A DNA stretch of 64,000 bases from Candidatus Stammera capleta. GTDB taxonomy: Bacteria; Pseudomonadota; Gammaproteobacteria; Enterobacterales; Enterobacteriaceae. Positions 1-64,000 of this stretch are shown here, piece after piece; positions within the stretch are counted from its first letter, which is position 1, and every line of letters starts with the position of its first letter. The translations under genes were made by a program, and so were the position numbers. The stretch spans positions 35,394-99,393 of the forward strand of contig CP145602.1 in NCBI GenBank assembly GCA_036884345.1. The letters are read 5' to 3'. Below the pieces are notes generated by a model. It saw only the letters and a list, made by a program, of their open reading frames with translations. It did no database searches and was not told the DNA's origin.

Positions 1-629
1 GACATGATCCTGGTGCTATAGGTATAAATGGAACTAAAGAAAAAGATATTAATTTATTAATATCTAAAAAATTATTTAGTCTTTTAAGTTTAAATAAAAA
101 ATTTAAAGTTTTTTTAATTAGAAATAAAGATAATTATGTTTCATTGAAAGATCGTTTACGTATAGTACGTATTAAAAATGCAAATTTATTTTTATCTATA
201 CATGTAAATTCTATTTATAATAATAAATATATAAAAGGTGCTTCTATTTGATTATTAGAAGTATTAAAAAAATATAAATATATAAATAGAGAAAAATTTT
301 TAAAATTAAATAAAAATAATAATTTGAAATTAAATTATTTATTTTTTGATTTAAATAAAAGAGTAAGTCAATTAAATTTTTATTTAGCGTCTGAAATATT
401 AAATAAATTTCGTAATACTGTTATATTACATAAAAATTATTTACAGTATGCAGATTTATTTATATTATCTTTATTTTATATACCTTCAATACTTATTGAA
501 GTTGGTTATATTAGTAATCCTATAGAGGAAAAAAAATTAATTAATAAATTTTATCAATATAAAATAGCTAAATATATTTATTTAGGTATAGAAAATTTTA
601 CAAATAATATTTGTATGTTAAAATATTAG
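1..629 (+). CDS. amiB: N-acetylmuramoyl-L-alanine amidase, C-terminal part (5' end outside window)
   Basis: Frame 3 is open from the window edge. Amidase_3 motifs HDPGAIG, LFLSIHVNS and EVGYISNPIEE are present. In-frame TGA 249-251 aligns with the Trp of AmiB GASVWVLS. The gene sits upstream of mutL as in E. coli. Confidence 0.8.
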
Positions 630-638
630 GTAAAAAAA

Positions 639-2273
639 ATGAATATAAAATTTTTACCTGAAAAAACTATAAGAAAAATTACTACTGGTGAATTAATAAA
701 TAGTAGTTATGATGTTATAAAAGAATTATTAGAAAATAGTTTAGATGCTGGTTCTTTAAATATTAAAATTGAAATATTAAACAATGGTTTAGATTTAATT
801 AGAATTATAGATGATGGTATTGGTATAAAAAAAAATGATTTGTTTAAAAGTATTCAAAAATATACAACTAGTAAAATTTTTTTTTCAAATGATTTATTTA
901 AAATTAATAGTTATGGTTTTAGAGGTATGGCATTATCTTGTATAAGTTCTATATCTAATTTTAGTATTTCATCTAAATATAAATATAGTAATGTTAATTA
1001 TGGTTGGTTGTTATTTAATAAAAAAAATAAATTTTTATCTTTTAATATAAAACCGATATTTCATAATATTGGTACTATAGTAAGTATTAAAAATATACTT
1101 TTCAATGATTTTAATAAAAAAAAAAATTTTTATTTTTTAAATAAAAATGAATGATTTTATATTAAAAAAATATTTAATTATTTTTCTTTATCTAATTATA
1201 GAATTAATTTTTCTATTTATAAAGAAAATTTATTATATAAAAAATATATAAATAAATTTTATGATGATAAAAATAGTATATTAGATAGAATGATATGTAT
1301 ATATGGAAAAAATAAAATTAAAGATTATAGATATATATGTATATATGATAAGTATATTTCTTTTAAAGGATATATATTAAAAAATAATAAAAATATTAAG
1401 ATTATTTTTTTAAATAATAGAATTATATCTGTAAAAAATTTATTATATATATTAATAAATAATTTTTTTTTTGATTTGTGAGGTAAAGATTTTTTTTTTT
1501 CTTATGTATTATATTTTAAAATTTCTAGTAAAAATATTAATATAAATATATGTCCTGATAAAAGTAAAATAAATTTTTTAAATCCTTCTTTATTATTTAA
1601 TAAAATATATAAAAAATTGTCTTTAATATTTTTTAAAGAAAAAAATATATATAAAGAAAAAAAAAAAATAAATAAATTATGTTTAAATAATTATTTAAAT
1701 TATTTTTTATTATATTTTGGTAATATTATAAATATTTTAAATGAACGTTTTGTTTTTTCTGTTTTAAATTCTATATTAGTAATTACGGATTTATTATTTG
1801 TTTTTTATTATATGAATATTTTAATATTTAAAAAAAAATATTTTTTTTTGGTAAAAATTAAAAAAATAAGTGAATTTAAAATATTTTTATCTAAAGATTT
1901 TTTTTTAAATAAAAATAAAATTTTTTTTTTTTTAAATAATTTAGGTATTAAAATATCTTATAAAAAAAATTATTTTTTAATTACTAGTATTCCTATAGAA
2001 TTATTTAATTTAAATTTAAAAATTTTTTTTTTATCTTTTTTAAATTTTTTAAAAAAAAATGAAAAAAAAAAATTTTTTTTAGAATTTACAATTTATTGAT
2101 TATCTAATTATATTATTATTAATAAAGGATGAAATAAATTTAATATTATAAAATTAATATGTAGATTTCATAGTTTATATATTAAATTAAATTTTTGTTT
2201 TAAAAAAAAAATTTTTTATTTTTTAAATTTTAATAAAATATTTTTATATTTTAATAATGAAATATGATCATAA
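639..2273 (+). CDS. mutL: DNA mismatch repair protein MutL
   Basis: Track ORFs 639-1154, 1290-1481 and 1617-2099 share one frame and are joined only by TGA. Motifs ELLENSLDAG, DDGIGI and YGFRG are present, and ININICPDKSKINF resembles VDVNVHPAK. I checked by hand that the gaps contain no TAA/TAG. The gene ends at TAA 2271-2273. Confidence 0.85.
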
Positions 2274-3214
2274 AAAGAAGTATACCTAAAATTTTTTGTA
2301 TATTGGGGCCTACAGGAATAGGAAAAAGTTATATAGCTATGCAATTATGTAAAATTCTTCCTATAGAATTAATTAGTGTTGATTCTGGTTTAATTTATAA
2401 AGATTTAAATATAGGTACAGCTAAACCTAACAATTTAGAATTAAAATATTTTCCTCATAGATTAATTAATATTATTAATCCTGAAGAATATTATTCTGTA
2501 AAAAAATTTTTTATAGATTTAATTTATGAATTAAATGATATTATTTATATTAAAAAAAAAATACCTTTATTAGTTGGTGGAACTATGATGTATTTTAATA
2601 TTATATTTAATGGATTATATTTATTACCTGATCCTAATTATAAAATACGTTTTTATATAGAAAATTTATTGAATAATTTTGGTATTAAATATATTTTTAA
2701 TATATTAAAAAATGTTGATATTAATTCATCAAAAAAAATTCATTGAAATGATAAATATAGAATTATAAGAAATTTAGAGGTTTTTTTTACTACAAAAAAA
2801 AATGTTTCTTTTTTTAAAAATATACAAAAAGTAAATTTAAATTTTAAAATATATAAAATTATAATATTACCTAAAAATAAAAATAAATTATTTGAAATAA
2901 TAGTTGATAGATTTTATAAAATGTTGTCTATGGGTTTAGAAGATGAAGTATATAATTTATATATACGTAATAATTTAAATATTAATAAACCTTCAATAAA
3001 ATGTATTGGTTATAAACAAATGTGATTATATATTGATAGAAAAATTTCTTATTTAAAAATGATTAAAGATACTGTTAATAGTACTTTTAATTTAGTTAAA
3101 AAACAATTAACTTGATTAAATAGATGATCAAGTGATTTAAAAATTATTAATGATAGTAATTATATAAATAAAATTAGTGAAATTTCTAATTTTATTGTTA
3201 ATTTAATTAATTAG
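2264..3214 (+). CDS. miaA: tRNA dimethylallyltransferase (i6A37)
   Basis: P-loop GPTGIGKS. IHW(TGA)NDKYRIIRNLEVF matches the MiaA D.qRi.RaLEv motif, and LTW/NRW are encoded by TGA. The gene ends at TAG 3212-3214 and overlaps the mutL end by 10 nt. Confidence 0.9.
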
Positions 3215-3225
3215 AGGATAATTAT

Positions 3226-4512
3226 TTGATAAATAAAAATAATGTTTTAGCTATTTTTATATATTTTAATAAGTTAAATATAATTGAAAAAAAAGAATTT
3301 AAAAAATTAATTTTTTCTGCTGGTTATAATATAGGTAAGTTATTATATGTTAATATAAGATATCCAAATAGAAAATTTTTTTTTGGTTTAGGTAAACTAA
3401 AGGAAATTATTTTTTTTGTTAAAAAATTTTTTTTTAAAAAAATATTTATTAATTTAGTATTAAAAAGTACACAAGAATATAATTTAAAAAAAAAAACAAA
3501 ATGTTCTATTATAAATAGAACTTATATAATACTAAATATTTTTAAAAAAAGAGCAAATACCAATTATGGTAAATTACAAGTAAAATTAGCTTATTTAAAT
3601 TATTTAAGTACTAGATTAGTAAGAAGATGAAGACATTTAGAACGTCAGAAAGGTGGAATAAAATATATATCAGGTCCTGGAGAAAAACAAATTGAAATAG
3701 ATAGGAGAATAATTAAAAAAAAAATTAGTTTAATTTCTAAAAATATTAAAAAAATTTCTAATCAAAAAAATAAAAATACTCAATTTCGTAATAAACATAA
3801 TGTACCTATTATTTCTTTAGTTGGTTATACTAATTCTGGTAAATCAACTTTATTTAATTTATTAACTAATTCTAATTTTTATTATAAAAAAGGTTTTTTT
3901 TCTACTTTAGATACATATATAAGAAAAATTAGTAAATTTAAATTTAGTAGTAATGTTTTACTTTCTGATACAATTGGTTTTATAAGAGACTTACCTTCTA
4001 GTATTAAATCTGCTTTTAAAAGTACTTTAAATGAAATTTCTTATTCACAGTTAATTTTACATATTATAGATTCTTCTAATTTATATTTTTTAGATTATAT
4101 TAATATAGTTAATTCTGTTTTAAAAGATATTAATATTTATAATGTTCCTGTTATTCAAATAATGAATAAAATAGATAAATTAAAAAATTTTAGTGTTAAA
4201 TTGGATATTAATAATTTAAATTTACCATTTAGAATATGAATTTCTGCTAAAAAAGAAATGGGAATAAATTTTATATATAATATAATTAATTTTTATTTAT
4301 TTTCTAAAAAAATAAAAACTACTATTTGTGTTCCTTTAAAAATTTCATTTTTTTTAAGAAATATTTTATATAGTAATAATATTGTATTAAAAGAATGAAG
4401 TAATAATGGTAAAAAATATTATTTTGATATTTTATCTCCTAAAATTTTATTTTTATCTATTTTAAAAAAATATTGTTTTTTAAAAAAATATTTAGGTAAT
4501 TTTCATGAATAA
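3226..4512 (+). CDS. hflX: GTPase HflX
   Basis: TTG start. LVRRW(TGA)RHLERQKGGIKYISGPGEKQIEIDRR matches the HflX signature. G1 is GYTNSGKST, G3 is DTIGF and G4 is NKID. The gene ends at TAA 4510-4512. Confidence 0.9.
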
Positions 4513-5257
4513 AAAAGAAAAATATTTTTATGGTTTTAGAACTGTTAAAAATTTAATTGAATTTAAATTTAATTATATAAAAAAAATATTTTTAACTAAT
4601 TTTCATAATAAAAAATATACATATTTATTAAATTTAATAAAAATTAAAAATATTCCTTATAAAAAAGTTCATAAAAATTTTTTTAAAAAATTTCATTTAT
4701 TTAATCATCAAGGTATAATTGCATTAGTAAAAAAAAAAAAAATGTTTTGTAATGATATTAATAATCTTTTAGAATTAATTAAAAAAAAAAAAAAACATTT
4801 TTTTTTAATTTTAGATAGTATTAATAACCCTAATAATTTAGGTTCTTGTATTAGAACTGCTGTAGCTGCTAATATAGATGCTATTATAATAACTAATTAT
4901 AATACAGTTTCTATAGATAATAATATTGTACATAAAGTATCTATGGGATCTATTTATAAAATTTTTATTATTATTATTAATAATATTAATAATATAATAA
5001 CTTTATTAAATAAATATAATTTTTTTTTATTATGTACTGATTTAAATTCTAAAAATTCTATTTATAAATTTAATTTTAATAATTATAATTCTATAGCTTT
5101 AATATTAGGTTCTGAAAATAAAGGAGTAAAAAAAAAAATAAAAGAAAAATGTAATTTTTTATTTAAAATACCAATTAAAAATATTAATTCATTAAATGTT
5201 TCAGTTTCTAATGGAATAATAATTTTTGAAATTTTACGTCAAATTAATAATTTATAA
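4505..5257 (+). CDS. rlmB: SpoU/TrmH-family 23S rRNA 2'-O-methyltransferase
   Basis: Track ORF of 250 aa. SpoU motifs NPNNLGSCIRTA, LILGSENKGV and IPIKNINSLNVSVS are present. The rlmB assignment rests on family membership plus E. coli neighbourhood logic. Confidence 0.75.
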   Translation: MNKKEKYFYGFRTVKNLIEFKFNYIKKIFLTNFHNKKYTYLLNLIKIKNIPYKKVHKNFFKKFHLFNHQGIIALVKKKKMFCNDINNLLELIKKKKKHFFLILDSINNPNNLGSCIRTAVAANIDAIIITNYNTVSIDNNIVHKVSMGSIYKIFIIIINNINNIITLLNKYNFFLLCTDLNSKNSIYKFNFNNYNSIALILGSENKGVKKKIKEKCNFLFKIPIKNINSLNVSVSNGIIIFEILRQINNL

Positions 5258-6187: not shown

Positions 6188-6189
6188 TT

Positions 6190-6630: not shown

Positions 6631-6642
6631 TTTTATATATTA

Positions 6643-6730
6643 TGCCCAAGGCGGGATTTGAACCCGCAAGATTATTAATATAATCGAGGGATTTTAAGTC
6701 CCTTGTGTCTACCAATTTCACCACTCGGGC
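6643..6730 (-). tRNA. leuZ: tRNA-Leu (anticodon UAA), long variable arm, no encoded CCA
   Basis: The reverse complement GCCCGAG-TG-GTGAAATTGGTAGACAC...AGGGA-CTTAAAA-TCCCT...GCGGG-TTCAAAT-CCCGC-CTTGGGC-A folds as a class II cloverleaf. Confidence 0.9.
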
Positions 6731-6748: not shown

Positions 6749-6819
6749 AAGCGTGTCCCGGAATTGAACCGGGATTTATGGATTTGCAATCCATTGCATT
6801 ACCTTTCTGCCAACACGCT
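6749..6819 (-). tRNA. cysT: tRNA-Cys (anticodon GCA), no encoded CCA
   Basis: The reverse complement AGCGTGT...ATGGA-TTGCAAA-TCCAT-AAAT-CCCGG-TTCAATT-CCGGG-ACACGCT-T folds as a cloverleaf. The cysT-leuZ order is the same as in E. coli. Confidence 0.9.
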
Positions 6820-7412: not shown

Positions 7413-7883
7413 ATGTCACGTCGTAAAATTATAAGTAGTCGTACTATATTACCGGATTATATATATAACTCTAAATTAGTAGCAAAATTTATTAATTTAC
7501 TTATGTTTGATGGTAAAAAATCTATAGCTGAAAAAATTTTATATACTTCTTTATGTATATTAAAAAAAAAAATAAATAAATCTAAATTGGATTTATTAGA
7601 ATTAGCTATAGATAATGTTAAACCTATAGTAGAAGTTAAATCTCGTAGAGTTGGTGGTACTACTTATCAGATTCCTATAGAAGTAAGACCTAAAAGAGGT
7701 AATACTTTAGCTATACGTTGAATTATATTTTCAGCTAGAAAAAGATCTAAAGGAAAAATGTTTTTAAAATTATCTGATGAATTATTAGATGCAATTAATA
7801 AAAAAGGTTTTGCTGTTAAAAAACGTGATGAAACTCATCGTATAGCTGAATCTAATAAAGCATTTGCTCATTATAGGTGGTAA
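7413..7883 (+). CDS. rpsG: 30S ribosomal protein S7
   Basis: Track ORF 7413-7721 continues through TGA (AIRW). The C-terminus ...[12 protein letters not shown] matches E. coli S7. TAA is at 7881-7883. Confidence 0.97.
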
Positions 7884-7908: not shown

Positions 7909-10032
<2,124 letters not shown>

Positions 10033-10075: not shown

Positions 10076-11260
10076 ATGTCAAAAGAAAAATTTGAACGTT
10101 CTAAAATACATGTAAATGTTGGTACTATAGGTCATGTAGATCATGGTAAAACAACTTTAACTTCTGCTATTACTACTATATTAGCAGAAAAATATGGTGG
10201 TTTACCACGTGCTTTTGAACAAATAGATAATGCACCTGAAGAAAAAGCTAGAGGTATTACAATTAATACTTCTCATGTAGAATATGATACTTCTAAAAGA
10301 CATTATGCACATGTAGATTGTCCTGGACATGCTGATTATATTAAAAATATGATTACTGGTGCAGCACAAATGGATGGAGCTATTTTAGTAGTTGCTGCTA
10401 CTGATGGACCTATGCCTCAAACTAGAGAACATATTTTATTGGCACGTCAAGTAGGTGTACCATATATATTAGTATACTTAAATAAATGTGATATGGTAGA
10501 TGATATAGAATTATTAGAATTAGTAGAAATGGAGATAAAAGATGTTTTATCTCAATATAATTTTCCTGGTAATAATACTCCTATAATTAGAGGTTCTGCT
10601 TTAAAAGCTTTAGAAGGAGATACTAAATGAAAAAATAGTATTTTAAAATTAGCTGATTCTTTAGATAATTATATACCTAATCCAAAAAGAAATATTGATC
10701 AACCATTTTTATTACCTATTGAAGATATTTTTTCTATTTCTGGTAGAGGTACTGTGGTTACAGGTAGAATAGATCAAGGTTTAGTTAAAATTGGTGATGA
10801 AGTAGAAATAGTTGGTATAAAGGGTACTAAAAAATCTATATGTACTGGTATAGAAATGTTTCGTAAATTACTTGATGAAGGTAGAGCTGGAGAAAATGTT
10901 GGTATTTTATTAAGAGGAATTAAAAGAGAAGATATAGAAAGAGGTCAAGTTTTAGCAAAACCTGGAAGTATAAATCCTCATACTAATTTTGAATCTGAAG
11001 TTTATGTTTTATCTAAAGAGGAGGGTGGTAGACATACACCTTTTTTAAATGGTTATCGTCCTCAATTTTATTTTAGAACTACTGATGTTACAGGTACTAT
11101 TGAATTACCTAAAGGTATAGAAATGGTTATACCTGGAGATAATGTTAAAATTTTAGTAAAATTATTTAGTCCTATAGCTATGGATGAAGGATTAAGATTT
11201 GCTATTAGGGAAGGTGGTCGTACAGTTGGAGCAGGAATAGTTAGTAAAATTTTATCTTAG
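10076..11260 (+). CDS. tuf: elongation factor Tu
   Basis: Track ORFs 10076-10630 and 10754-11260 are in one frame. TGA 10628-10630 lies at the conserved Trp of ALEGDxxW. 394 aa. Confidence 0.98.
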
Positions 11261-13169: not shown

Positions 13170-13991
<822 letters not shown>

Positions 13992-14008: not shown

Positions 14009-14290
14009 ATGTCTCGTTCTTTTAAGAAAGGTCCTTTTATTGATGCTCATTTATTTAATAAAGTAGAAAAAATGCTTAAAACTAAAAATAAGAAATCTAT
14101 TCGTACATGATCTAGAAGATCTACTATATTACCAAATATGATTGGTTTAACTATTTTAGTACATAATGGTAGACGTCATATTCCAGTTTATATTACTCAA
14201 GATATGGTAGGTCATAAATTAGGTGAATTTTCTCCTACTAGAACATATAGAGGTCATTTATCATCTGAAAAAAAAGTTAAAAAAGATTAA
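14009..14290 (+). CDS. rpsS: 30S ribosomal protein S19
   Basis: ATG at 14009 preceded by AGGT. The sequence reads [12 protein letters not shown]...IRTW(TGA 14108-14110)[12 protein letters not shown]...[15 protein letters not shown]. Confidence 0.96.
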
Positions 14291-15402: not shown

Positions 15403-15858
15403 ATGTTGCAACCTAAAAAAACTAAATATAGAAAAGTTCAAAAAGGTCGTAATAAAGGTATATCTAACGATGTAGAATTACATTTTGGTAAATTTGGTTT
15501 GAAAGCTATTACTAGAGGTAGTATATCTTCTAAACAGATTGAATCTGCTCGTCGTGTTATTACACGTACTATGAAAAGACAAGGTTTTTTATGAATAAGA
15601 ATTTTTCCAGATAAACCTATTACTAAAAAGCCTTTAGAAATTCGTATGGGTAAGGGTAAAGGTAATGTAGAATATTGGGTTTCTATAATTAAACCTGGTA
15701 AAATTTTGTATGAAATTGATGGTGTTAATGAAAGGATAGCGAGAAAAGCTTTAAAATTAGCTAGTGATAAATTATCTGTTAAAACAATGTTTGTAATAAA
15801 AAATCTTTTATTATGATTAATAATAAACTTTTGAAAAATAAAAATATTGAAGAATTAA
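15403..15858 (+). CDS. rplP: 50S ribosomal protein L16 (the end is 15858 if TGA 15814-15816 is read as Trp, or 15816 if that TGA still terminates)
   Basis: Track ORF 15403-15594 continues through TGA ([16 protein letters not shown]). A second TGA lies at the position of the E. coli L16 stop, and the next TAA is at 15856-15858. Confidence 0.9.
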
Positions 15859-19199: not shown

Positions 19200-19703
19200 A
19201 TGATCAAATTTAATAATAATAATGATTTTTATGAAAAATTAATATCAGTTAATAGAGTTTCTAAAACAGTTAAAGGTGGTAGGGTATTTTCTTTTACTGC
19301 TTTGACTGTAGTAGGAGATAGATATGGTAAGGTAGGTTATGGATATGCTAAAGCTAGAGAAGTTCCTTTTGCTATACAAAAAGCTATGGATAAAGCTCGT
19401 AAAAATATGTTTTTTATTTTGTTAAACAAGAAAAATACTATAAGATATGAAATTAAAGGTATGCATACTAGTACTAGTGTATTTATAAAACCAGCTTCTG
19501 AAGGTACAGGTATTATAGCTTGTAAATCTATGAGAGCTATTTTTGAAGCTGTAGGTATTAAAAATATTTTGTCTAAATTATATGGTTCTAGTAATCCTTT
19601 AAATGTAGTTAAAGCTACATTAAATGCTTTAAATAATATGCAATCTCCTATTTATATAGCTAAAAAAAGAGGTAAATTTTTGAAAGAAATATTTACGTAT
19701 TAA
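19200..19703 (+). CDS. rpsE: 30S ribosomal protein S5
   Basis: Track ORF of 167 aa with [27 protein letters not shown]. Confidence 0.96.
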
Positions 19704-19759
19704 TAATTATATATTTAATATATTTTAAATTTAATATTTTTATATTTTGGTTTAAATAA

Positions 19760-20200
19760 ATGATACTTAGTTTAAATAGTTTTAAAATAAATAAAAAAAA
19801 AAAACCTAAAAGATTAGGTAGAGGTATAGGTTCTGGTTTAGGAAAAACTTGTGGTAAAGGACATAAAGGTCAAAAAAGTAGATCAGGAGGTAAAATAAGA
19901 AGATCTTATGAAGGTGGACAAACACCATTTTATAGAAGAATACCTAAATTTGGTTTTAAAAATATAAATATAAAAAAGAAAATTGAATTACGTTTATCTG
20001 ATTTAAATATATTTAATGATAATTCAGTAATAGATTTAAAAAAACTTAAAAAAAAAAAAATTATTTCTTCTAAAATTAAACAAATTAAAATAATATTTAG
20101 TAGTGGTTTTAAAAAAAAAAATATTAAAATTTTTGATAAAAATATTAAATTTTCTTTAAGTGTAAAAAAATTATTAAAAATAAATAATTTTAATAAATAA
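19760..20200 (+). CDS. rplO: 50S ribosomal protein L15
   Basis: Track ORF of 146 aa with [27 protein letters not shown]. Confidence 0.95.
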
Positions 20201-23086: not shown

Positions 23087-24085
23087 ATGTTTTCTACATT
23101 AGAATTTTTAAAACCTAAATTGGTAAATATAGAAAATGTATCTAAAACATATTCTAGGTTAGTTCTAGAACCTTTAGAAAAGGGTTTTGGTTATACTTTA
23201 GGTAATGCTTTAAGACGTATTTTATTGTCTTCTATATCTGGTTATGCAGTTACAGAAGTAGAAATTGATGGTGTATTACATGAATATAGTGTTAAAGATG
23301 GTTTGTTAGAAGATATAATAGAAGTTTTATTAAATTTAAAGAAATTATCTATTAAATTTAATGGTGATATAGAAGAAGCTGTATTATTTTTAAATAAAAG
23401 TGGTATTGGTCCTGTATTAGCTTCTGATTTAACTTGTGATTATGATTTTGATTTAGTTAATCCTAATCATATTATTTGTCATTTAACTCATAAAAATGCT
23501 TCTATTAATATGCGTATATATATAAAATTAGGTATAGGTTATGTTCCAGCTGCTTCTAGAATAAAAGAATTTAAAGAAATTAATGATACTTTAAAAGTAG
23601 GAAGATTATTTATAGATGCTCTTTATTCTCCTATAGAACGTATTTCTTATAAAATAGAATCTACTCGTGTAAAACAGCGTGTAGATTTAGATAAATTAAT
23701 TATTGATGTTTATACTAATGGAACTATAAAACCGGAATTTGCTATTAAAGAAGCAGCTACTATATTAGTTAATCAGTTAAGTTCTTTTATTAATTTAAAT
23801 AATAAAAATATTGAAAAAGTTAAAAAAGATAAATTATCTTTTGATCCTATTTTATTATCTTTAGTAGATGATTTAGAGTTAACTGTTAGATCAGCTAATT
23901 GTTTAAAAGCTGAATCAATTCATTATATTGGTGATTTAGTTCAGAAAACTGAAATAGAATTATTAAAGACACCTAATTTAGGTAAAAAATCTTTAAGTGA
24001 AATTAAAGATATTTTACTTTCTAAAGGTTTAACTTTGGGAATGAAAATAAAAAATTGAAATAATAATTTGAATTTAAAGAAATAA
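23087..24085 (+). CDS. rpoA: DNA-directed RNA polymerase subunit alpha
   Basis: ATG at 23087 gives [19 protein letters not shown] (E. coli TEFLKPRLVDIEQVS). TGA 24056-24058 lies at the conserved Trp (KNW vs ENW). TAA is at 24083-24085. Confidence 0.96.
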
Positions 24086-33811: not shown

Positions 33812-35482
33812 ATGTTTAAAAATCCTGTTAAAACTAAAAGTTGATTAAATTTAAATAATCATTTTTTATCTATTAAAAATGTTAAAATATTTGATCTTTT
33901 TAAAAAAGATAAAAAAAGATTTGATAATTTTTCTATTAATTTTGATGATAATATTTTAGTAGATTTTTCTAAAAATCGTGTTATTTTGAAAACTTTAAAA
34001 TTATTTGAAGATTTGTTATATGAAATTAATTTTAAAAATTATATTTATTCTATGCTTATAGGTGAAAATATTAATTTTACAGAAAATAAACCAGTTTTAC
34101 ATTTTTTACTAAGAGATAGAAAAAATATTTTTTTGAAAAATAATAAAGATTTTTTAGATATTAAAAAAGATATAGATACTAATTTAAATAAAATAAAATT
34201 TTTTACAGATAAAATATTAAATGGAGAATGATTGGGTTATACTGGTAAAAAAATTGTTAATATTGTTAATGTTGGTATAGGTGGGTCTGATATAGGACCT
34301 CGTATGATTATAAAAGCTTTATCTTTATATAAAAAAAAAAAAATTAATATATATTTTGTATCTAATATAGATTCTACGGATATTAAAAAAATTTTAGATA
34401 AATTAACTCCTGAAAATACTATTTTTATAATATGTTCTAAGACTTTTACTACTTTAGAAACATTAAATAATGCAAAAATTTTACGTAAGTGAGTTTTAGA
34501 TTTTTATAATAATAAAGAAAAATCTTTAAGTTATCATTTTATATTAATATCAAGTAATTTTTCTGAATCTATTAAATTTGGTGTAAATTTAAATAATATT
34601 TTTATTGTGCATGATTGAGTAGGAGGTAGATATTCTTTTTGTTCAGCTTTTGGTATTTCTATTTCTTTAGCTATAGGTTTTAATAATTTTATTAAATTAT
34701 TAGATGGTGCACATAATATGGATTTACATTTTTTTAGTTCACCTTATTTAAAAAATATACCTATTATATTAGCTATTTTAAGTATTTGATATAGTAATTT
34801 TTTTAATTTTCATACTGAAGCTATATTAGCTTACAATGAAAATTTATTTTATTTACCTATGTATTTACAACAACTTGTTATGGAATCTAATGGTAAATAT
34901 ATAGATTATAATGGTAATTATATTAATGAATATTGTACTTCTCCTATTATTTGAGGTGGTATAGGTACAATATCTCAGCATTCTTTTTATCAATTATTAC
35001 ATCAAGGTACATATATTGTTCCTTGTGATTTTGTAGGAGAAATTGTAAATATTAATAACATTAATAATTCTCATTTAAAATTAATGTCTAATTTTTTTTC
35101 TCAAACACAAGCATTAGCTTTTGGTAATAAAATTTTTAAAAAATATAATTTAAGTAATAATTTTAACAATTCTAACAAATTTATGGAATTTAAAGGTAAC
35201 AGACCTTCTAATAGTATATTAATTAAAAAAATTAATCCTTATAATTTAGGAGCATTAATATCTTTATATGAACATAAAGTTTTTACTCAAGGTATTATTT
35301 TAAATATATCTAGTTTTGATCAATGAGGTGTAGAATTAGGTAAAAAATTATCTAATTTATTATTTCCTTACTTAGGTAAAAATAATTTTTTACAAAGTAA
35401 AAATTTTAAAAAAAAACTTTATTTAGATAATTCTACATTAAATTTAGTAAATTTTTTTAATAAAAAATATCTTAATAACTAA
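33812..35482 (+). CDS. pgi: glucose-6-phosphate isomerase
   Basis: ATG at 33812. The frame is the same as track ORFs 33986, 34232 and 35084. [14 protein letters not shown] and SFDQW(TGA)GVELGK are present. 556 aa. Confidence 0.93.
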
Positions 35483-37398: not shown

Positions 37399-40218
37399 TT
37401 ATATAAATTTTCTTTTTTCACCTTTTCCTATAATATTTAATATACATCTTTTACATATATTTGGATAATTTTTATTGTTATTTATTTTAGTAACATAATG
37501 TCAACATCTTTTACATTTAATACCATAATGTTCTTTACATTTTAATTGAAAAAAATCTTTTTTACTTAAATTATTTTTTTTTTTTATATTTAATTTAGAA
37601 GTTAAAAAAAAAAATTTTAATTCTGATTTAATTTTTTTAATTTTTTTAAAAAAATTTTTTTCTAAATATAAAGTTACTATAGTTTTCAAAGTAGAATTAA
37701 TTTTTTTTTTATTTTTAAGTATTTCAATTTTTTTATTTAAATAATTTTTTATTTTAATTAATTTATTCCATATTTTAATATTTATATGATTATTTTTATG
37801 TATATAAAATAATTTTTCAAATCAAGTTTCTTCATATATTGAAGAAGGTTTTTTTCTAGGTAAATATTTTCATATTTCTTCTGCTGTAAAAGATAATATG
37901 GGAGCAATTCATTTTATTATTGTTTCTATTAATATTCATAAAGTAGTTTGAACACTATAATAAGGTAAAGTATTTTTTTTAATTGTGTATTTTCTATCTT
38001 TTATTATATCTAGATATATTGAACTTAAGTATATATTTAAAAATTTGAATATTTTTTTTGTTACTTTATAAAATTTAAATTTTTCATATAATTTTATTAT
38101 TTTTTGTTGTGTTTTTTTAGTTTTATGAATAATTCATTTATCTATTAATAACATTTTTTTAGGTATTATATAATTATTTTTAGGATTAAATTCATCTAAA
38201 TTAGATATTATAAATTTTATAGTATTTCTTATTTTTCTATATTTTCTACTAATTTGTAATATTATGTTGTTAGAAATATGTATTTCTTTTGTAAATTTAA
38301 TTGATGCAACTCATAATCTTAATATGTCTGCTCCATATTTATTAGTTATTTCTTTAGGATTTATATAATTTTTTAATGATTTAGACATTTTTTTACCTTT
38401 TTGATCTACTATAAATCCATGTGTTAAAATTTTTTTATAAGGAGCAGAATTATTAATTGCTGTGTTAATTATTAAAGAAGACATAAATCATCCTCTATAT
38501 TGATCTGTACCTTCTAAATATAAATCTATGTGATTTTTTTTTTTAAGAAAATTAGGATTCATTATTGAAAAACATGTAGCTCCTGAGTCAAATCATACAT
38601 CTAGTACATCTAAAACTTTAGTATATTTTTTATTATTTACTCCTAGTTTTTTAGGATGTATATCTAATCAATAATTAGGTCCATATTTTTTTATTTTAGA
38701 AGATATTATATCTATAATTTTTAATGTTTTAGGATGAATTTTATAATTTTTTTTGTTTATAAATATAGGTATTGGGGTACCTCAATAACGTTGTCTAGAT
38801 ATACATCAATCTGGTCTATTAATAATCATATTTTTTATTTTTTTATATCCCCATGAGGGAATTCATTTTACTTTTTTAATAGATTTAAGTATTTTTTTTT
38901 TGAATTTATTATTTTTTAAATCTATAAATCATTGTGATGTAGTTCTAAATATTATTGGTTTTTTATGTCTTCAACAAAAAGGATATTTATGTATTATATT
39001 TTCTTGAAATATAATTTTTTTTTTCTCTTTTAATTTTTTTAAAATTTTTTCTTCTGCTTGTTTAAATTTACATATTTCAATATTTTTAATATATGAATAT
39101 TTTATATATTTGCTTTTGTTTGTAATTACATTTAATCCTTTAATATTATTTTTTTTGGATAAATAAAAATCTTCTTCTCCATGTTCTGAAGCTATATGTA
39201 CTATACCTGTACCAGTATTAGAAATTATATTTTTATTAAATATAATAGGTGTTTTAATTTTTGTTATAGGATGTATAACAAATAAATTTTTAAATTTTTT
39301 ACCTTTTAAATTTTTAATTTTTTTATATTTTATTTTTTTTTTTTTAAAAAAAAACTTTTTTTGTTTTTTAGATATTATAAAAATATTTTTTTTGTGTTTT
39401 ATAAGTGAATATTTTAAATTTGGATGTATAGATATAGCACAATTTCCTGGTATAGTTCAAGGTGTAGTAGTTCAAATAATAAATTTAATATTTTTATTTT
39501 TTGTATTTTTATCTCAAATATTATTTTGAAATAGAAATTTTTTTGGAGAATAAAGTTTAAAAATTATATATATACTTTTAGATATTTTATTTTTATATTC
39601 TATTTCAGCTTCTGCTATTGATGAATTACATTTTATGCATCAGTTAGTAGGTTTTTTTTTTCTTTTTAGAAGTTTTAATTTAATAATTTTTTTTAATGTA
39701 TTTATAGTATTAGAAATTGTTGTAAATTCTGTAGTTTTATAATAATTTTTTCAGTCTGCTATTATACCTAATCTTATAAAATCTTTTTTTTGTTGTAAAA
39801 TTTGTTTTTCAGCATATTTAATACATTTATATTTAAATTTTTTAATTTTTTTGATTGATTTTTTTTTATTTTTATTATTTTTTTGAATTTTTAATTCAAT
39901 TGGTAAACCATGACAATCCCATCCTGGAATATATGGAGTATCAAAGTTCATAAAATTTTTATATTTTAATATTATATCTTTTAATATTTTATTTAAAGCA
40001 TGACCTATATGTATTTTTCCATTAGCATATGGAGGACCATCATGAATAATAAATTTTTTATTATTTTTTTTTATTTTTCTAATTTTTTCATATAAATTAT
40101 TTTTTTTTCATTTTTCAATTATTTTAGGTTCATTAATAGTTAAATTACCTTTCATAGGAAAATTTATTTTAGGTAAATTTATAGTTTTTTTGTAATTTAT
40201 TTTTTGATTATTTTTCAT
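37399..40218 (-). CDS. ileS: isoleucine--tRNA ligase
   Basis: The N-terminus reads ...[38 protein letters not shown] and the C-terminal Zn motif CKRCW-...CKRC are present. I translated about 1.2 kb of the C-terminal part by hand and found no TAA/TAG. 939 aa. Confidence 0.93.
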
Positions 40219-47563: not shown

Positions 47564-48715
47564 ATGAATTTATGTTATTTTACTTCTGAATCAGTTTCAG
47601 AAGGTCATCCAGATAAAATAGCTGATCAAATTTCTGATGCTATTTTAGATTTTATTATTTCTAAAGATAAATTTGCTAAAGTTGCTTGTGAAGTTTATGT
47701 TAAAAATAATATAGTTATAGTTGGTGGTGAAATTAATACATCTATATCATTTAATATAGAAGATATTGTTAGAAATACAATTAAAAATATTGGTTATGTA
47801 AATAAAAATGATCTTTTTAATTTTAGTTCTTGTATAATAATTAATATTATTAGTAAACAATCTTTAGATATATATATGGGTATTAAAAAAGATAAATTTT
47901 CTAATCAAGGTGCTGGTGATCAAGGAATAATGTTTGGTTATGCTTCTAATGAAACTAATGTATATATGCCAGCACCTATTTTATATGCACATTGATTAGT
48001 AAAAAGACAATCTGAATTAAGGAAAAATAAAATTTTATCTTGATTATGTCCTGATGCTAAAAGTCAAATTACTTTTATATATAAAAATAATGTTATTATA
48101 GGTATAGATACAGTTGTTTTTTCTACACAACATATGGATTATATTACTTATAATGAATTAAAAGAAGCAATTATGGAAGAAATTATATTATATATATTAC
48201 CTAAAAAATGATTAAATAAAAATACTAAATATTTTATTAATCCTACAGGTAGATTTGTTATTGGTGGACCTATGGGTGATTGTGGTTTAACAGGTAGAAA
48301 AATAATTGTTGATACTTATGGTGGTATAGCTAGACATGGAGGAGGTGCTTTTTCTGGTAAAGATCCATCTAAAGTTGATAGATCTGGAGCATATATGGCT
48401 AGATATATAGCAAAAAATATTGTTGCTGCAGGTTTAGCAGATAAATGTGAAATACAAATTTCTTATGCTATTGGTGTAACATCACCTATATCTGTTATGA
48501 TTAATACTTTTGGTACTGAAAAAGTATTAATTAATAATTTATTAAAAGCAATAAATATTTTTTTTGATTTAAGACCTGGTAAAATTATAAAAAATTTAAA
48601 TTTATTAAATCCTATATATTATAAAACTGCTTCATATGGTCATTTTGGTAGAGAAGAATTTTCATGAGAAAAATTAGATAAAGTAAATTTTTTATTAGAT
48701 TATTTTAAAATTTAA
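47564..48715 (+). CDS. metK: S-adenosylmethionine synthase
   Basis: Track ORFs 47564-47995 and 48272-48667 are in one frame. [12 protein letters not shown] is present. FSW(TGA)EKLDK resembles E. coli FPWEKTDK. TAA is at 48713-48715. Confidence 0.96.
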
Positions 48716-50430: not shown

Positions 50431-50817
50431 ATGAATAATAAAAAAATAAATTCTTTAGGTAAAATTTTAGTAAAATATAGAAAAATGTTAAATTTTACTC
50501 AAAAAGATATTGCAAAAAAATTATGTCTAAAATTAGAATTAATTGATAATATAGAAAAAGATATATTTCCTACTAATATTCCTAAAGTTTTTTATTGTGG
50601 TTATATATATTCTTATGCTCGTTTAGTTAAAGTATCTAAAAAAAAAATATTTTTATTTTTAGAAAGATATAATAATAAAAATTACTGTTTTTCTGAAAGT
50701 AAAATAAAAAAAGATTTTGATAGTTTTTTTTTTTTAAATTATATTTATTTTTTTCTAATTAAATTAATAGTATTATTTTTTTCTTTTTATTTTTTTTGAA
50801 GATATTTAAAAAATTAA
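50431..50817 (+). CDS. rodZ: cytoskeleton protein RodZ, truncated to the HTH domain plus one transmembrane helix
   Basis: LGKILVKYRKMLNFTQKDIAKKLCLKLELIDNIEKD...CGYIYSYARLV resembles E. coli [36 protein letters not shown]...RGYIRSYARLL. A hydrophobic helix LNYIYFFLIKLIVLFFSFYFF follows. The protein is 128 aa against 337 aa in E. coli. It follows rlmN as in E. coli. Confidence 0.8.
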
Positions 50818-56413: not shown

Positions 56414-56456
56414 TTAATTGACTTTAGAAATATATTAATGATAATATAATTTTATT

Positions 56457-56530
56457 ACGCTCTTAGCTCAGTTGGATAGAGCAACAGCCTTCTAAGCTGT
56501 AGGTCACAGGTTCAAATCCTGTAGAGCGTG
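56457..56530 (+). tRNA. argU: tRNA-Arg (anticodon UCU), no encoded CCA
   Basis: ACGCTCT-TA-GCTC-AGTTGGAT-AGAGC-A-ACAGC-CTTCTAA-GCTGT-AGGTC-ACAGG-TTCAAAT-CCTGT-AGAGCGT-G. It closely resembles E. coli argU. Confidence 0.92.
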
Positions 56531-56534
56531 TTAA

Positions 56535-58886: not shown

Positions 58887-58890
58887 ATTT

Positions 58891-60111
58891 TTACCTCTTA
58901 TTTATTTTTTTATATATTACATAAGGTTTAATTTTTTTATTGACTACTTTTTTACTTATTATTATTTTTTTAATACCTTCTATTGAAGGTATATTATACA
59001 TTAAATCTATTAATATATCTTCTATTATATTTTTTAATCCTCTAGCTCCTGTTTTTTTTTTTATTGTTTTAATAACTATTTGTTTAAGAGATTTTTTAGT
59101 AAATATAAGATTTATTTTATATAATTTAAATATATTTTGATAATATTTAATTATTGAATTTTTAGGTTTGATTAATATTTTTAATAAATCATTTTTTTTT
59201 AATTTATTTATATGAATAATATTAGAAAATCTACCTATAAATTCTGGTATAAATCCAAAATTTATTAAATCTTGTGTATTTATTTTAGATTTTTTTTTTT
59301 TTATATATTTACTATTAAAACCTATTTTGTAATTATTTGTTCTTTTTTTAATTATTTTATTTATACCATTAAATGTTCCACTGCATATAAATAAAATATT
59401 TGTAGTATCTATTTGTATATTATCTTGTTGAGGATGTATTCTTCCTCCTTTTTTAGGTACAGAAGATATTGTTCCTTCTATAATTTTTAATAAAGATTGT
59501 TGTACTCCTTCTCCAGAAACATCTCTAGTAATAGATAAATTAATAGATTTTTTTGCTATTTTATCTATTTCATCAATAAAAATAATTCCATATTGAGCTT
59601 TTGAAATATTAAAATTACATTTTTGTATTAATCTATATAATATATTTTCTACATCTTCTCCAACATATCCAGCTTCTGTTAAAGATGTAGCGTCAGTTAT
59701 AACTATTGGTATATTTATAATTTTTGATATTGTTTTAGCTAATAATGTTTTACCACTACCTGTAGGTCCTATTATTAAAATATTTGATTTGTTAGTAAAA
59801 TATTTTTTATAATTATATTTTATATTATAAATAATTTTATAATGATTGTATATGTGTGTTGATAGTATTTTTTTAGCTTCATTTTGTCCTATAATATATT
59901 GATCTAATTTTTTTTTTATTTTTTTAGGTGTATATTTTAGAATATTAAAAATATTTTTACTTTTATTTTTTTTTTTTAGAAAATTTATTTTATTAAATGT
60001 AGTAATACATTCATTACATATATATGATTTTTTACCAATAATCATTTTTTTAACTTGATATTTAGATTTTTGACAAAAAGAACAATTTATGTTTAGATTA
60101 TCAATTTTCAT
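58891..60111 (-). CDS. clpX: ATP-dependent protease ATPase subunit ClpX
   Basis: Track ORF of 406 aa with the zinc motif CSFC...CNEC and Walker [12 protein letters not shown]. Confidence 0.96.
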
Positions 60112-60122
60112 ATTTTAATATA

Positions 60123-60683
60123 TTAATTTCTTTGATTAATAATTTTGTCTATTATTCCATAATTTAGAGCTTTATTAGCGGAAAAAAATTTATCTCTTTC
60201 TATATCTTTGGAAATTTTTTTTATAGTTTGTTTTGTGTTATTACTTAATAAATAAATAATTTTTTTTTTTATTTTTAATATTTCTTTTGTATGTATTTCT
60301 ATATCTGTTACTTGCCCTTGTAAACTACCTAAAGGTTGATGAATCATTATTCTAGAATTAGGTAAACTAAATCTTTTTTTTTTTTTTCCTGAAGATAATA
60401 TTATTGCAGCCATTGAACATGCTTGACCAATACATATTGTATTTATATCTGGTTTAATAAAATTCATTGTATCATATATTGACATACCTGATGTTATTAT
60501 TCCTCCAGGAGAATTAATGTATAAATAAATATCTTTTTTATAATTTTTTGATTCTAAATATAATAATTGAGTAATTATATTATTAGATAAAATATCGTCT
60601 ATATAACCAGTTAGAAAAATTATTCTGTTATTTAAAAGTTTATTATATATATTTATATATTTGTTATTATAATTTTCTTCCAT
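60123..60683 (-). CDS. clpP: ATP-dependent Clp protease proteolytic subunit
   Basis: Track ORF of 186 aa with [11 protein letters not shown] (Ser) and MIHQP (His). Confidence 0.96.
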
Positions 60684-60703
60684 ATATTATTTAAAATTTT
60701 ATT

Positions 60704-61129
60704 TTAATATTTAATTATTTTGTCTAAAATATTGTTTATTAATTTATAACTATTATTGAATCCAAATTTTTTTGCTAGTTTAATACTTTCATTTATTACT
60801 ATTTTATAAGGTATTTTTTTATTTATTTTTAATTCATATGTAGCAATACTAAGTATTAAAAATTCTATTTTTCCTATATATGTTTCTTTAAAAATTAAAG
60901 ATGAATAAATTTTTTTTTTTATATATTTTTTATTTTTTTTTGTTCCTTTTAATATTTTATATAAATAATATATATTTATATTATTTAGTATTTTAGGATT
61001 GATTAATTTAAATTCTTTTATTTTTTTTTTTATGTTTTTATTTTTAGAAATTTTACAAGAATACATTATTTGTAATGCTAATTCTCTGGTATTTTTATTT
61101 TTTATAAAAAACAATTTTATATCCTTCAT
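60704..61129 (-). CDS. nusB: transcription antitermination factor NusB
   Basis: Track ORF of 141 aa. RELALQIMYS and INESIKLAKKFGFNNSYKLINNILDKI resemble the NusB C-terminal signature. Confidence 0.8.
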   Translation of the reverse strand: MKDIKLFFIKNKNTRELALQIMYSCKISKNKNIKKKIKEFKLINPKILNNINIYYLYKILKGTKKNKKYIKKKIYSSLIFKETYIGKIEFLILSIATYELKINKKIPYKIVINESIKLAKKFGFNNSYKLINNILDKIIKY

Positions 61130-61134
61130 TAAAT

Positions 61135-61356
61135 TTATTTATTGTTACGAAATATTATTCTTCCTTTATTAATATCATAAGGAGTTAATTCTACTGTTAC
61201 TTTATCACCTGTTAATATTCTAATATAATTTTTTCTCATTTTACCTGATATATGTCCTATTATTAAATGTCCATTATCTAATTTTATTTTAAACATTGTA
61301 TTTGGTAAAGTTTCTATTACTATTCCTTGTACTTCAATATTTTTTTCTTTTATCAT
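61135..61356 (-). CDS. infA: translation initiation factor IF-1
   Basis: Track ORF of 73 aa with [37 protein letters not shown]. Confidence 0.97.
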
Positions 61357-61364
61357 AGTAAATT

Positions 61365-62315
61365 TTATTTAGTTTTTCTTTCTAAATATTTTTTTACTTC
61401 CATAGCGGCTATACATCCTGATGCTGAAGAAGTTATTGCTTGTTTAAATTTGTTATTTATTACATCTCCTGCAGCAAATACACCTTTTATATTGGTCATA
61501 GATTGATATTTAGAATTTTTGTAGTTTGTTATTATATAACCTTGTTTATCCAGATTAATATTTTTTTTAAATATTTTAGTATTAGGTTTATAACCTATTG
61601 CTATAAATAATCCACTTATTTTAATTTTTTTTTTTTTATTATTTTTTAAATTTTTTATTTTTATACAATTTAAATATTTATTTTTTTTGTATATTTTAAT
61701 AATTTTATAATTTTTATAAAATAATATTTTTTTTTTTTTTATTTGTTTATAGATTTTTTTTATTAAAAATTTTTCTGATGTTAAATTTCTTCTATGTATT
61801 AAATAGATTTTATTAGCTATTTTAGATAAATATATAGTTTCTTCTGAAGCAGTATTTCCTCCACCTATTATTGCAATATTTTTTTTTTTATATAATAAAC
61901 CATCACATGTTGAACATGTAGATATACCTTTACCATATAATTCTTTTTCATAAGTTAAATTTAATTTCTTAGGTATACATCCAACAGCTATTATTAATGT
62001 AATACAAAAATATTTTTTATTTTTACTTTTTAAAGTAATTACTTTATTATTATATTTAATATTAATTATAGTATCATAAATTATTTTAGTATTAAATTTT
62101 ATAGATTGTTTTTTCATATTTTTAATTAATTTAATACCTTTAATACCTTTATATTCTCCTGGTCAATTTTCTATTTTATTTGATTTTATTATTTGACTAT
62201 CTTGTTCATGTTTAGTTATTATTATTGGTTTAAGATTATATCTACTAGCATATATAGAAGATGTATATCCTGCTGGTCCTGAACCTATAATAATTAGTTT
62301 TTCTATTTTTTTCAT
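61365..62315 (-). CDS. trxB: thioredoxin reductase
   Basis: ATG at 62315 gives [20 protein letters not shown]...ENW(TGA)PG, in the same frame as track ORF 61365-62117. The redox motif CSTCDG is present. 316 aa. Confidence 0.93.
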
Positions 62316-62439
62316 AGTAATTTTAAATCTTATTATAAATATATATTATTAAAATATAGTATAATTATACTACTGGTGTAAAAAATTTATAATTGTATAA
62401 TTAATAATTAGTATTTAAATTTTAATAATTAATAATTTT

Positions 62440-63726
62440 ATGTTAGATATAAAATTTTTGTTAGATAATTATAATGTTTTATCTAAACAATTAAATAATC
62501 GTATTTCATATTTTGATATAAAAAAGATATGTTTTTTATTTAATAAAAAAAAACAAATAAAATTTGAAATTGAATTATTACAATTCAAACGTAATTTTTT
62601 TACTAAAAAATTTTTTATTTATATAAAAAAAGATTCTTTTTTTTTGAAAGATATTATTAAATATTTTAAAGTTAATATAAATTTTAAAAAAAAAATTTTA
62701 AATAAAATATCTTTAATTTTACAAAAAATTTTATTTAGTATACCAAATATTCCTCATAAAAGTGTTCCATTAGGTAAAAATGATTCAAATAATAAAATAA
62801 TTTATAATTGAGGTATTATTAAAAAAAAAAAAAAAATATTAAGTCATATAAAATTTGGTAAATTAACTGGTAATTTAAATTTTGATGATTCTTCTAATAT
62901 TAGTGGTTCAGGTTTTGTAATTATGAAAAATAATATTGCTCTTTTATATAGAGCTATATCACAATTTATGTTAGATATACATACAAAAAAAAATTTTTAT
63001 TCTGAAATTTATGTTCCTTATATTGTAAATATTTCTTCTTTATATGGTTCAGGACAATTACCAAAATTTTATAAAGATATATTTTATATAAGTTCTAAAA
63101 GAGAAAAAAATATTAATTATGCTTTAATACCTACATCAGAAGTTTCATTAATAAATTTATTTAAAAATAAAATTTTAAATGATAGTGATTTACCTATTAA
63201 ATTAGTTTCTAATACTCCATGTTTTAGATCTGAATCTAAATCTTATGGTAAAAATAATAGAGGTTTAATTAGATTAAAACAATTTGATAAAGTTGAATTA
63301 ATTCAAATTGTTAAACCTCAAAATTCTATGTTAGCTTTAGAAGAATTAACTAATTCTGCTGAAGTAATACTTAAAAAATTAAATTTATCTTATCGTAAAG
63401 TATTATTATGTAGTAAATTAATGAGTTTTAGTTCTTGTAAAACTTATGATTTAGAAGTTTGATCTCCTTTAGATAAAAGTTATATTGAAGTTTCTTCTTG
63501 TTCTAATACATGAGATTTTCAATCTAGAAGAATAAATATTCGTTATAAAAATGTTCAATTAAATAAAAATATTTTTGTACATATTATTAATGGTTCTGGT
63601 TTAGCTATAGGTAGAATATTAATGTTAATATTAGAAAATTTTCAAATAGATACAGGTGTAATTAAAATACCTGATGTTTTATTAAATTATATGAATGGTA
63701 TAAAATTTATTAAATTAAATGATTAA
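62440..63726 (+). CDS. serS: serine--tRNA ligase
   Basis: Track ORFs 62440-62811 and 62923-63462 are in one frame, extended through TGA (EVW-SP...SSCSNTW-DFQSRR...NGSGLAIGR). TAA is at 63724-63726. 428 aa. Confidence 0.93.
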
Positions 63727-63743
63727 TTATTAATTTTATTTAT

Positions 63744-64000
63744 ATGTTTAAAAAATTTTCTGTTGCTCCTTTGTATAAATATACAGATAGACATTGTAGA
63801 TATTTTTATAGTCTTTTAAGTAACAATATAAAATTGTATACAGGTATGATATATACATCTTCTTTTTTATATAAATATAAAATTAATCGATTATTTTTAA
63901 ATGATATTAAAAATGTTCCTGTGGTAATACAATTTATAGGTAATAATAGTTATGATTTATATAAATCTGCTAAATTAGTTAGAAAATTAAATTTTTCTGA
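63744..64000 (+). CDS. dusA: tRNA-dihydrouridine synthase A, N-terminal part (3' end outside window)
   Basis: [36 protein letters not shown] resembles E. coli [33 protein letters not shown]. Confidence 0.85.
   Translation, partial: [85 protein letters not shown]

Follow-up and report, generated by a model that had tools for sequence, protein, structure and literature searches.

Candidatus Stammera capleta is an extracellular, genome-reduced gut symbiont of tortoise leaf beetles (Cassidinae) and belongs to the Enterobacteriaceae. About 50 Stammera genomes were reportedly presented by Garcia-Lozano et al. in 2024. Genetic code 4 is attributed to Stammera in Table 1 of PMC8629427, where Salem et al. 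2017 is cited for it; a Codetta screen places Stammera among the known code-4 cases, and the annotation protocol for Stammera specifies 'genetic code 4'. A survey of 49 Stammera genomes gave sizes of 0.22-0.34 Mb and G+C contents of 13.9-20.4% (PMC13462651), and Table 2 of the same paper records tRNA-Trp(CCA) as present and tRNA-Trp(UCA) as absent in the 49 genomes, with prfB in 15 of them; tRNA-Sec and selB are reported there as missing from Stammera. The same CCA anticodon is given in Table 2 of PMC10540940, and a canonical 5-bp anticodon stem is described for Stammera tRNA-Trp in PMC13092985. The gTranslate preprint, which states that GTDB leaves out Stammera genomes, also found a CCA-only tRNA-Trp, and observed that prfB is retained by some code-4 assemblies and by five code-11 Stammera genomes. 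Five of the 15 prfB-bearing genomes are called code 11 (gTranslate preprint; PMC13462651).

Several other recoded bacteria offer points of comparison. Candidatus Zinderia insecticola (Betaproteobacteria, code 4) is like Stammera in its CCA-only tRNA-Trp, its reading of UGA as Trp and its extreme A+T content, although it belongs to a different bacterial class and the anticodon stem of its tRNA-Trp is 4 bp long, a feature proposed to favour UGA reading, whereas that of Stammera is reported to have the canonical 5 bp (PMC13092985). Candidatus Hodgkinia cicadicola, Candidatus Nasuia deltocephalinicola and the Mycoplasmatales share genome-wide UGA = Trp with the stretch of DNA analysed here (64,000 nt, hereafter the window) and have lost prfB, but they have a tRNA-Trp(UCA), which Stammera reportedly does not (PMC10540940, PMC13462651). 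Since the literature gives Stammera the CCA anticodon only, a UCA tRNA-Trp is not a universal feature of table 4 organisms. The leech symbiont Providencia siddallii PSAC is, like Stammera, a member of the Enterobacterales with a CCA-only tRNA-Trp and UGA for Trp. PSAC is transitional, with UGA in about 20% of its genes, a prfB that is present and carries its own UGA, and about nine genes that are seemingly UGA-terminated; in the window, by contrast, UGA occurs in 66% of genes and none requires a UGA stop.

The window is very probably part of the chromosome of a Candidatus Stammera capleta strain whose whole proteome is written in translation table 4. Species placement was based on clade membership and synteny with CP024013.1, a sequence known to be Candidatus Stammera capleta (PMC9543054). 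In a SerS comparison, the window fell into a single clade of some 36 chromosomes, which are syntenic, measure 212-326 kb and have CP024013.1 among them; SerS identities were 60% to CP024013.1 and 83-84% to the nearest relatives, which lie on contigs of 297,036 bp (CP144833.1) and 306,783 bp. The best free-living matches to SerS in a scan of a genome collection were from Pectobacterium, Raoultella, Klebsiella and Photorhabdus, all at 45% identity or less. From der to hslU, gene order was identical to that of CP024013.1, and the relative loci L095-L101 had almost the same gene order as the window, while the G+C content of the whole window (18.0%) and the length of its chromosome (296,766 bp) were both inside the published Stammera ranges. 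CP024013.1 resembles the window in gene order in every compared region, in its class of genome size and GC, in the large excess of TGA over TGG, in TAA being far commoner than TAG, and in having no TGA stops; the window nevertheless comes from a different strain, which has retained slightly more TGG. The 16S gene and the pectinases are located outside the window. Proteins of the window are already public, translated with Trp at TGA: of ten that were compared with the protein collection, seven had an exact counterpart there, and six of these were traced to the 296,766-bp contig. The complete SerS, with Trp at all three of its TGA positions, likewise had an exact entry. The original prediction had placed the sequence beside Mollicutes and a handful of tiny insect symbionts in which UGA encodes Trp. 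It does belong to such a symbiont, but this is not a further case, as it is Stammera itself. The reassignment of UGA to Trp here is well supported as real, and it has been known since 2017.

When TAA, TAG and TGA were all treated as stops, the longest stop-to-stop frame in the window was 530 codons, compared with 939 codons, corresponding to ileS, when TAA and TAG alone were used. We mapped 71 protein genes under UGA = Trp, with at least one in-frame TGA observed in 47 of these (66%), a count that agrees with the more than 40 claimed earlier. Trp codons in the 71 genes comprised 138 in-frame TGA and 16 TGG, so that UGA accounts for about 89% of the total. Internal TAA and TAG codons were absent from all 71 genes, and no frameshift was needed to read any of them, which extends to the whole set the earlier claim that the pieces of a gene are separated by TGA alone. 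All 70 genes with a 3' end inside the window were terminated by TAA or TAG, as had been stated for the genes that could be closed; the 66 with an E. coli match divided into 61 TAA and 5 TAG. Among the fully aligned genes, rplP was the sole one whose reading frame did not close where the E. coli protein ends, and none of the window's genes required UGA as a terminator. UAA and UAG are still stops. The window also matched E. coli in gene order at the operon level, bearing out the Enterobacterales-type arrangement that had been proposed.

Orthologues were aligned by BLASTP against E. coli K-12. A Trp was found in E. coli opposite 104 of the 124 aligned in-frame TGA codons (84%), compared with a chance expectation of 1.14, Trp making up 0.92% of aligned columns (binomial P = 8e-190); enrichment of TGA columns for Trp had been proposed in advance as a check on the reading. 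The non-Trp partners were scattered, with V (3), R (3), F (2), Y (2) and A (2) the commonest, a distribution that substitution at variable sites would be expected to give. The TGG codons were opposite E. coli Trp in 16 of 16 cases.

Each TGA for which a coordinate or a motif had been given beforehand was found opposite E. coli Trp. On the plus strand these are the TGA of rpsG (7719..7721), fusA (8062..8064), rpsS (14108..14110), metK (48665..48667) and pgi (35324..35326), the single in-frame TGA of tuf (EF-Tu; 10628..10630), and the two in rplB (13806..13808 and 13911-13913). Three further fusA TGA codons (8122, 8287 and 8485) are on Trp columns too, as are all seven of the TGA codons in pgi. 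The rpoA TGA (24056..24058, plus strand) is in the C-terminal tail, which reads ...KNW against ...ENW in E. coli when aligned by eye. The most affected gene was ileS (37399..40218, minus strand), which has 3 TGG and 21 in-frame TGA; at 19 of the latter the E. coli residue is Trp, and one of these 19 is the TGA within its GADILRLWVAS motif (38311-38313, minus strand). Some Trp residues are still encoded by TGG, as had been noted, including the last sense codon of rpsG (7878..7880, plus strand), which is followed by TAA, and one codon each in rpsC, rplP and glyS.

Comparison within the genus gave a consistent picture. Three code-4 relatives showed the TGA pattern of the window, with TGA:TGG ratios of 37:1 in CP024013.1 and 33:4 in CP144819.1, and an alignment with two code-4 relatives (79-87% amino-acid identity) revealed 43 conserved TGA positions and 6 swaps between TGA and TGG. 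A syntenic relative, CP144793.1 (GCA_036689325.1; 303 kb, 21% GC), has nearly the same gene order but differs from the window in lacking in-frame TGA, with 0 TGA and 39 TGG in 18 genes and TGG at 12 of 14 window TGA sites. By this pattern, CP144793.1 appears to match the basal code-11 clade of the gTranslate preprint (2026). Together with the Trp-column enrichment and termination by TAA and TAG only, the strain swaps and the TGG codons of this standard-code relative confirm that UGA is a Trp sense codon in the window, and throughout it, as originally proposed.

Three tRNA genes were observed in the window, tRNA-Leu(UAA) (6643-6730, minus strand), tRNA-Cys(GCA) (6749-6819, minus strand) and tRNA-Arg(UCU) (56456..56531, plus strand), and there was no tRNA-Trp among them. 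The tRNA-Arg(UCU) was found at the same folD/lon junction in the Stammera relatives L097, L098 and L100, and adjoins folD in L101. The window contained neither prfB nor trnW, and both were likewise missing from some 35 kb of flanks taken from relatives. The left flank of the relatives ends in rrl-rrf-tRNA-Asp-orn-tRNA-Gly, with no tRNA-Trp behind tRNA-Asp, unlike E. coli rrnC, and no tRNA was present in the dcw cluster (rsmH-murE-murF-mraY) of one relative.

Judging from the published surveys of other Stammera genomes, a single tRNA-Trp of canonical form, with the anticodon CCA and an anticodon stem of 5 bp, would act as the decoder, and UGA would be read through near-cognate C34-A pairing, which loss or inactivity of RF2 would make tolerable. 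As to the history of the change, extreme A+T mutation pressure may first have nearly emptied UGA of stop use, as is suggested by the 0 UGA stops in 18 genes of the standard-code relative CP144793.1. UGA termination would then have lapsed, and the same A+T pressure would have turned UGG into UGA.

A variant of this mechanism, which we regard as unlikely though worth stating, is that the strain is a code-4 Stammera with RF2 and with the canonical 5-bp-stem tRNA-Trp(CCA) alone, so that UGA would be decoded by undescribed means. If so, candidates would include a modified C34, a change in the D-arm of the kind seen in the Hirsh UGA suppressor of E. coli, inactivation of RF2 through read-through of its own regulatory UGA frameshift site, or a site-specific dual use of UGA, for example at rplP 15814.

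An ambiguous code, in which UGA is mostly Trp and a retained RF2 terminates at some sites, would make the strain a living intermediate of reassignment. The annotation of prfB in 15 of 49 Stammera genomes, just 5 of them code 11, is in its favour, as is the 3' end of rplP (15814..15858, plus strand), where the TGA at 15814-15816 overlaps the rpmC start codon (15813-15815) as ATGA. The E. coli protein ends about two codons short of this TGA; in CP144799.1, a relative, a TAA lies five codons upstream of it. Under code 4, rplP reads past 15814 and past a second TGA at 15832 to the TAA at 15856-15858, making it the sole gene to extend beyond its E. coli end (by 15 codons), and 15814 is the only site in the window at which termination by UGA is still plausible. 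TGG was also kept above the mutational expectation, at 10.7% of Trp codons against 4.0% NNG in other A/G codon pairs (p = 4e-4), so UGA and UGG may not be fully equivalent. On the other hand, no window gene needs a UGA stop, and efficient competition by RF2 would carry a very high cost at the 138 in-frame UGA codons, some of which lie in 19 ribosomal-protein genes and in the genes for EF-Tu, EF-G and RpoA. Around sense UGA, neither the base at +4 nor the codon that follows could be told apart from background, giving no distinctive context, and in a rough manual count no excess of in-frame TGA was visible near gene 3' ends, with 5-6 in the last ten codons and about 4.5 expected. Given these observations, we consider dual use improbable in this strain. 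Separately, TGG made up 18% of Trp codons in highly expressed genes and 8% in the others (Fisher p = 0.08); other NNG codons followed the same trend, which points to local GC content, and Trp-specific selection for TGG in highly expressed genes was rejected as the cause.

A tRNA-Trp with a UCA anticodon reading both UGA and UGG, with prfB absent, is the arrangement of the Mycoplasmatales, Hodgkinia and Nasuia, and it was the one expected in the original prediction. For this strain it is very improbable, and the expectation probably wrong, as the 49 surveyed genomes, which are from other strains, have the CCA and not the UCA form (PMC13462651) and two further sources concur (PMC10540940; gTranslate preprint). 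The leftover TGG codons are no less compatible with the CCA anticodon than with UCA. The original prediction had also taken an intact prfB together with a CCA-only tRNA-Trp as a sign against reassignment. This criterion is invalid and would mislead for Stammera, because the surveyed genomes are CCA only, prfB is found in 15 of 49, and some code-4 assemblies keep it.

The readings that deny Trp at UGA fared worst. Massive pseudogenisation under the standard code, with TGA as nonsense mutations in a decaying genome, would account for the interruption of 47 of the 71 genes under table 11, but it is refuted by interruptions that are TGA alone and never TAA, TAG or frameshifts, by the position of 84% of TGA exactly on Trp columns and by the conservation of TGA across strains, and it is at odds with TGA in indispensable genes. 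Recoding of UGA to Gly (table 25), selenocysteine or Cys has parallels for Gly and selenocysteine in other bacteria, but is likewise refuted, with no Gly and no Cys opposite any of the 124 aligned TGA codons and, for selenocysteine, no tRNA-Sec or selB in Stammera (PMC13462651).

The reassignment itself adds nothing new, since Stammera is a textbook-listed case. In practice, annotation with table 4 is required, and table 11 would miscall two thirds of the window genes as pseudogenes, in keeping with the earlier warning that a standard-code annotation would do so for most genes. The interest is at the level of the genus, where a canonical tRNA-Trp with a CCA anticodon would serve about 89% of Trp codons as UGA and where prfB, in those code-4 strains that have retained it, has a role to be accounted for. 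With code-11 and code-4 lineages of almost identical gene order, Stammera offers a good natural series for stop-codon capture.

The window had a G+C content of 18.0%, and its longest stop-to-stop frame spanned 530 codons with TGA as a stop and 939 codons with TGA as sense. Our final map contained 71 genes, comprising 66 matched to E. coli together with def, rpsK, a DedA/VTT-family gene, a TsaB-like gene and a dus fragment. In-frame TGA was observed in 47 of these (138 TGA versus 16 TGG codons), including the genes for EF-Tu, EF-G and RpoA and 19 ribosomal-protein genes, which are among the most highly expressed. None of the 71 genes had an internal TAA or TAG, and all 70 with a 3' end inside the window terminated in TAA or TAG. 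The original prediction, that UGA is read as Trp (code 4), was a correct and careful reading of the raw sequence: the frames split by TGA rejoin, most aligned TGA codons lie on E. coli Trp columns, the stops are exclusively TAA or TAG, and all of the coordinates it listed were verified.

At a single site, TGA 15814-15816 in rplP, UGA could retain a residual role as terminator, as this codon overlaps the rpmC start codon (ATGA) and lies about two codons past the end of E. coli L16. Read with code 4, the rplP 3' end (15757-15858) continues through TGA 15814 and TGA 15832, with 14 further codons beyond the first of these, to TAA 15856-15858. The resulting L16 tail is about 15 residues longer than that of E. 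coli and 19 codons longer than that of the syntenic relative CP144799.1, and the gene overlaps rpmC by 46 nt. CP144799.1 carries a TAA five codons before the site of TGA 15814, where the window has AAA. No gene other than rplP extended past its E. coli terminus.

A similar ATGA, in which TGA 2265-2267 overlaps the start of miaA, lies at the end of mutL (2264-2273). A TAA follows two codons later and would make an inexpensive reserve stop if this TGA was formerly the terminator. In MutL (639-2273), the alignment to E. coli was confined to the N-terminal ATPase half (about 325 residues at 28% identity), and BLASTP did not recognise the remaining C-terminal part. MutL of the relatives is shorter (481 aa), and this repair gene may be decaying. 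Several other genes were missing or reduced. The gene rpmD (L30) was absent from the 56-bp gap between rpsE and rplO (19703-19760), and tblastn with E. coli L30 gave no match in the window. We also observed that hfq was missing between miaA and hflX (3214-3226), the latter apparently starting with TTG (3226) about 9 bp downstream of GAGGA. The rlmN-rodZ-hisS-der cluster lacked ispG, yfgM and bamB, and its rodZ homologue (50431-50817) encodes 128 aa versus 337 in E. coli, with alignment restricted to the N-terminal helix-turn-helix part.

Of ten window proteins looked up by exact sequence, seven had identical public entries, and six of these were placed on an NCBI contig of 296,766 bp. A homology search with SerS returned a full-length public protein identical to that of the window with Trp at its three TGA sites, so translation of this chromosome in the public collection already follows code 4. 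Next came about 36 NCBI relatives, each on a single contig of 212-326 kb, and then Buchnera (about 52% identity). DNA of six relatives was compared with the window, and all six shared its gene order apart from the occasional presence or absence of a single gene. The conserved left part runs orn, tRNA-Gly, amiB-mutL-miaA-hflX-rlmB, fmt-def and tRNA-Cys/Leu and continues into the str-S10-spc operons up to the limit of each locus, and the right part der-cysS-folD, tRNA-Arg(UCU), lon-clpX-clpP-nusB-infA-trxB and serS-dus onward. The Enterobacterales gene order noted originally agrees with the NCBI placement of Stammera in Enterobacteriaceae and with the best free-living SerS matches. One compared relative, CP024013.1 (271,175 bp), is named 'Candidatus Stammera capleta' in PMC9543054, and the gTranslate preprint gives the name Stammera to a further assembly of the same accession block, GCA_036689315.1. 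The chromosome of 296,766 bp and the G+C of the window both fall inside the ranges published for 49 Stammera genomes (0.22-0.34 Mb, 13.9-20.4% GC; PMC13462651).

The window was translated with TGA masked as X and searched by BLASTP against all open frames of the E. coli K-12 regions holding the expected orthologues, with antisense shadow matches removed. Orthologues were found for 66 genes, 45 of which contained in-frame TGA. TGA codons were strongly enriched on Trp columns: 104 of 124 TGA codons inside alignments were opposite Trp versus 1.14 expected (Trp = 0.92% of aligned columns; P = 8e-190), as were 16 of 16 TGG codons. The other 20 partners were V (3), R (3), F, A and Y (2 each), one each of L, P, I, E, T, S and H, and one gap. 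Codon by codon, two code-4 relatives had TGA at the same position in 43 cases and a TGA/TGG swap in six; the differences left over consisted mainly of Phe or Leu codons, with one Arg (AGA). Nonsense mutation and pseudogenisation are excluded, because the interruptions are exclusively TGA, lie on Trp columns, are kept across strains and affect essential genes. A reading of UGA as Gly, Sec or Cys is likewise excluded by the absence of Gly or Cys opposite any of the 124 aligned TGA codons.

UGA acts as a normal Trp codon in the window. It made up 89% of Trp codons, not far below the A-ending shares of 92-97% seen for the codon pairs of Lys, Glu, Gln, Leu and Arg, and third-position G+C across all genes was only 4.2%. 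The TGG share (10.7%) exceeded the 4.0% of G-ending codons in those pairs (odds ratio 2.9, p = 4e-4), so that TGG is kept somewhat above the prediction from mutation bias, and the cognate codon still enjoys a slight preference. This excess hints at slightly poorer decoding of UGA or at an unfinished conversion. Nothing special was found in the downstream context of sense UGA in the window.

The RNA genes of the window were limited to tRNA-Leu(UAA), tRNA-Cys(GCA), tRNA-Arg(UCU) and RNase P RNA. Neither tRNA-Trp nor prfB (RF2) was found in about 35 kb of flanks in the relatives, where tRNA-Asp and tRNA-Gly were the further tRNAs. Just left of the window start, CP144799.1 (L095 1-2234) carries 23S rRNA, 5S rRNA, tRNA-Asp(GUC), orn, tRNA-Gly(GCC) and amiB. 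Whereas tRNA-Trp follows tRNA-Asp in E. coli rrnC, it does not in CP144799.1, indicating that trnW moved elsewhere in Stammera. The UCA anticodon that had been expected is probably wrong, since published Stammera genomes carry tRNA-Trp(CCA) and never tRNA-Trp(UCA), with prfB annotated in 15 of 49 (PMC13462651 Table 2; PMC10540940 Table 2 agrees on the anticodon). The anticodon stem of this tRNA is the canonical 5 bp, in contrast to the 4-bp variant of Zinderia (PMC13092985). Given these published tRNA-Trp and prfB data, UGA is most likely read by tRNA-Trp(CCA) as a near-cognate codon, with little or no competition from RF2. An intact prfB with a CCA-only tRNA-Trp, originally named as refuting the reassignment, would be a false negative in this genus.

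The window is a member of a known code-4 case, and the reassignment carries no novelty. It was reported by Salem et al. 2017, according to Table 1 of the Codetta screen (PMC8629427), which includes Stammera; code 4 was used for annotation by the depositors of about 50 Stammera genomes, and the case, with its CCA-only tRNA and patchy prfB, was re-examined in 2023-2026 (PMC10540940, PMC13092985, the gTranslate preprint, PMC13462651). The remaining interest is the decoding mechanism in the genus, which lies beyond the reach of the window.

Within the regions fetched, in-frame TGA and TGG numbered 38 and 4 in CP144799.1, 37 and 1 in CP024013.1, and 33 and 4 in CP144819.1. The nearly syntenic CP144793.1 (GCA_036689325.1; L098 1-21305, 21% GC) had 18 genes with no TGA, as sense or stop, and 39 TGG, with TGG at 12 of 14 aligned sites of window TGA. 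By this pattern of almost unused UGA, rather than by listing, it looks like the code-11 (standard bacterial code) Stammera lineage of the gTranslate preprint, which lists five genomes and retains prfB. Near-absence of UGA is what would be predicted immediately ahead of codon capture, and the sample from CP144793.1 suggests that A+T pressure had all but eliminated UGA stops by the time the codon was captured for Trp.
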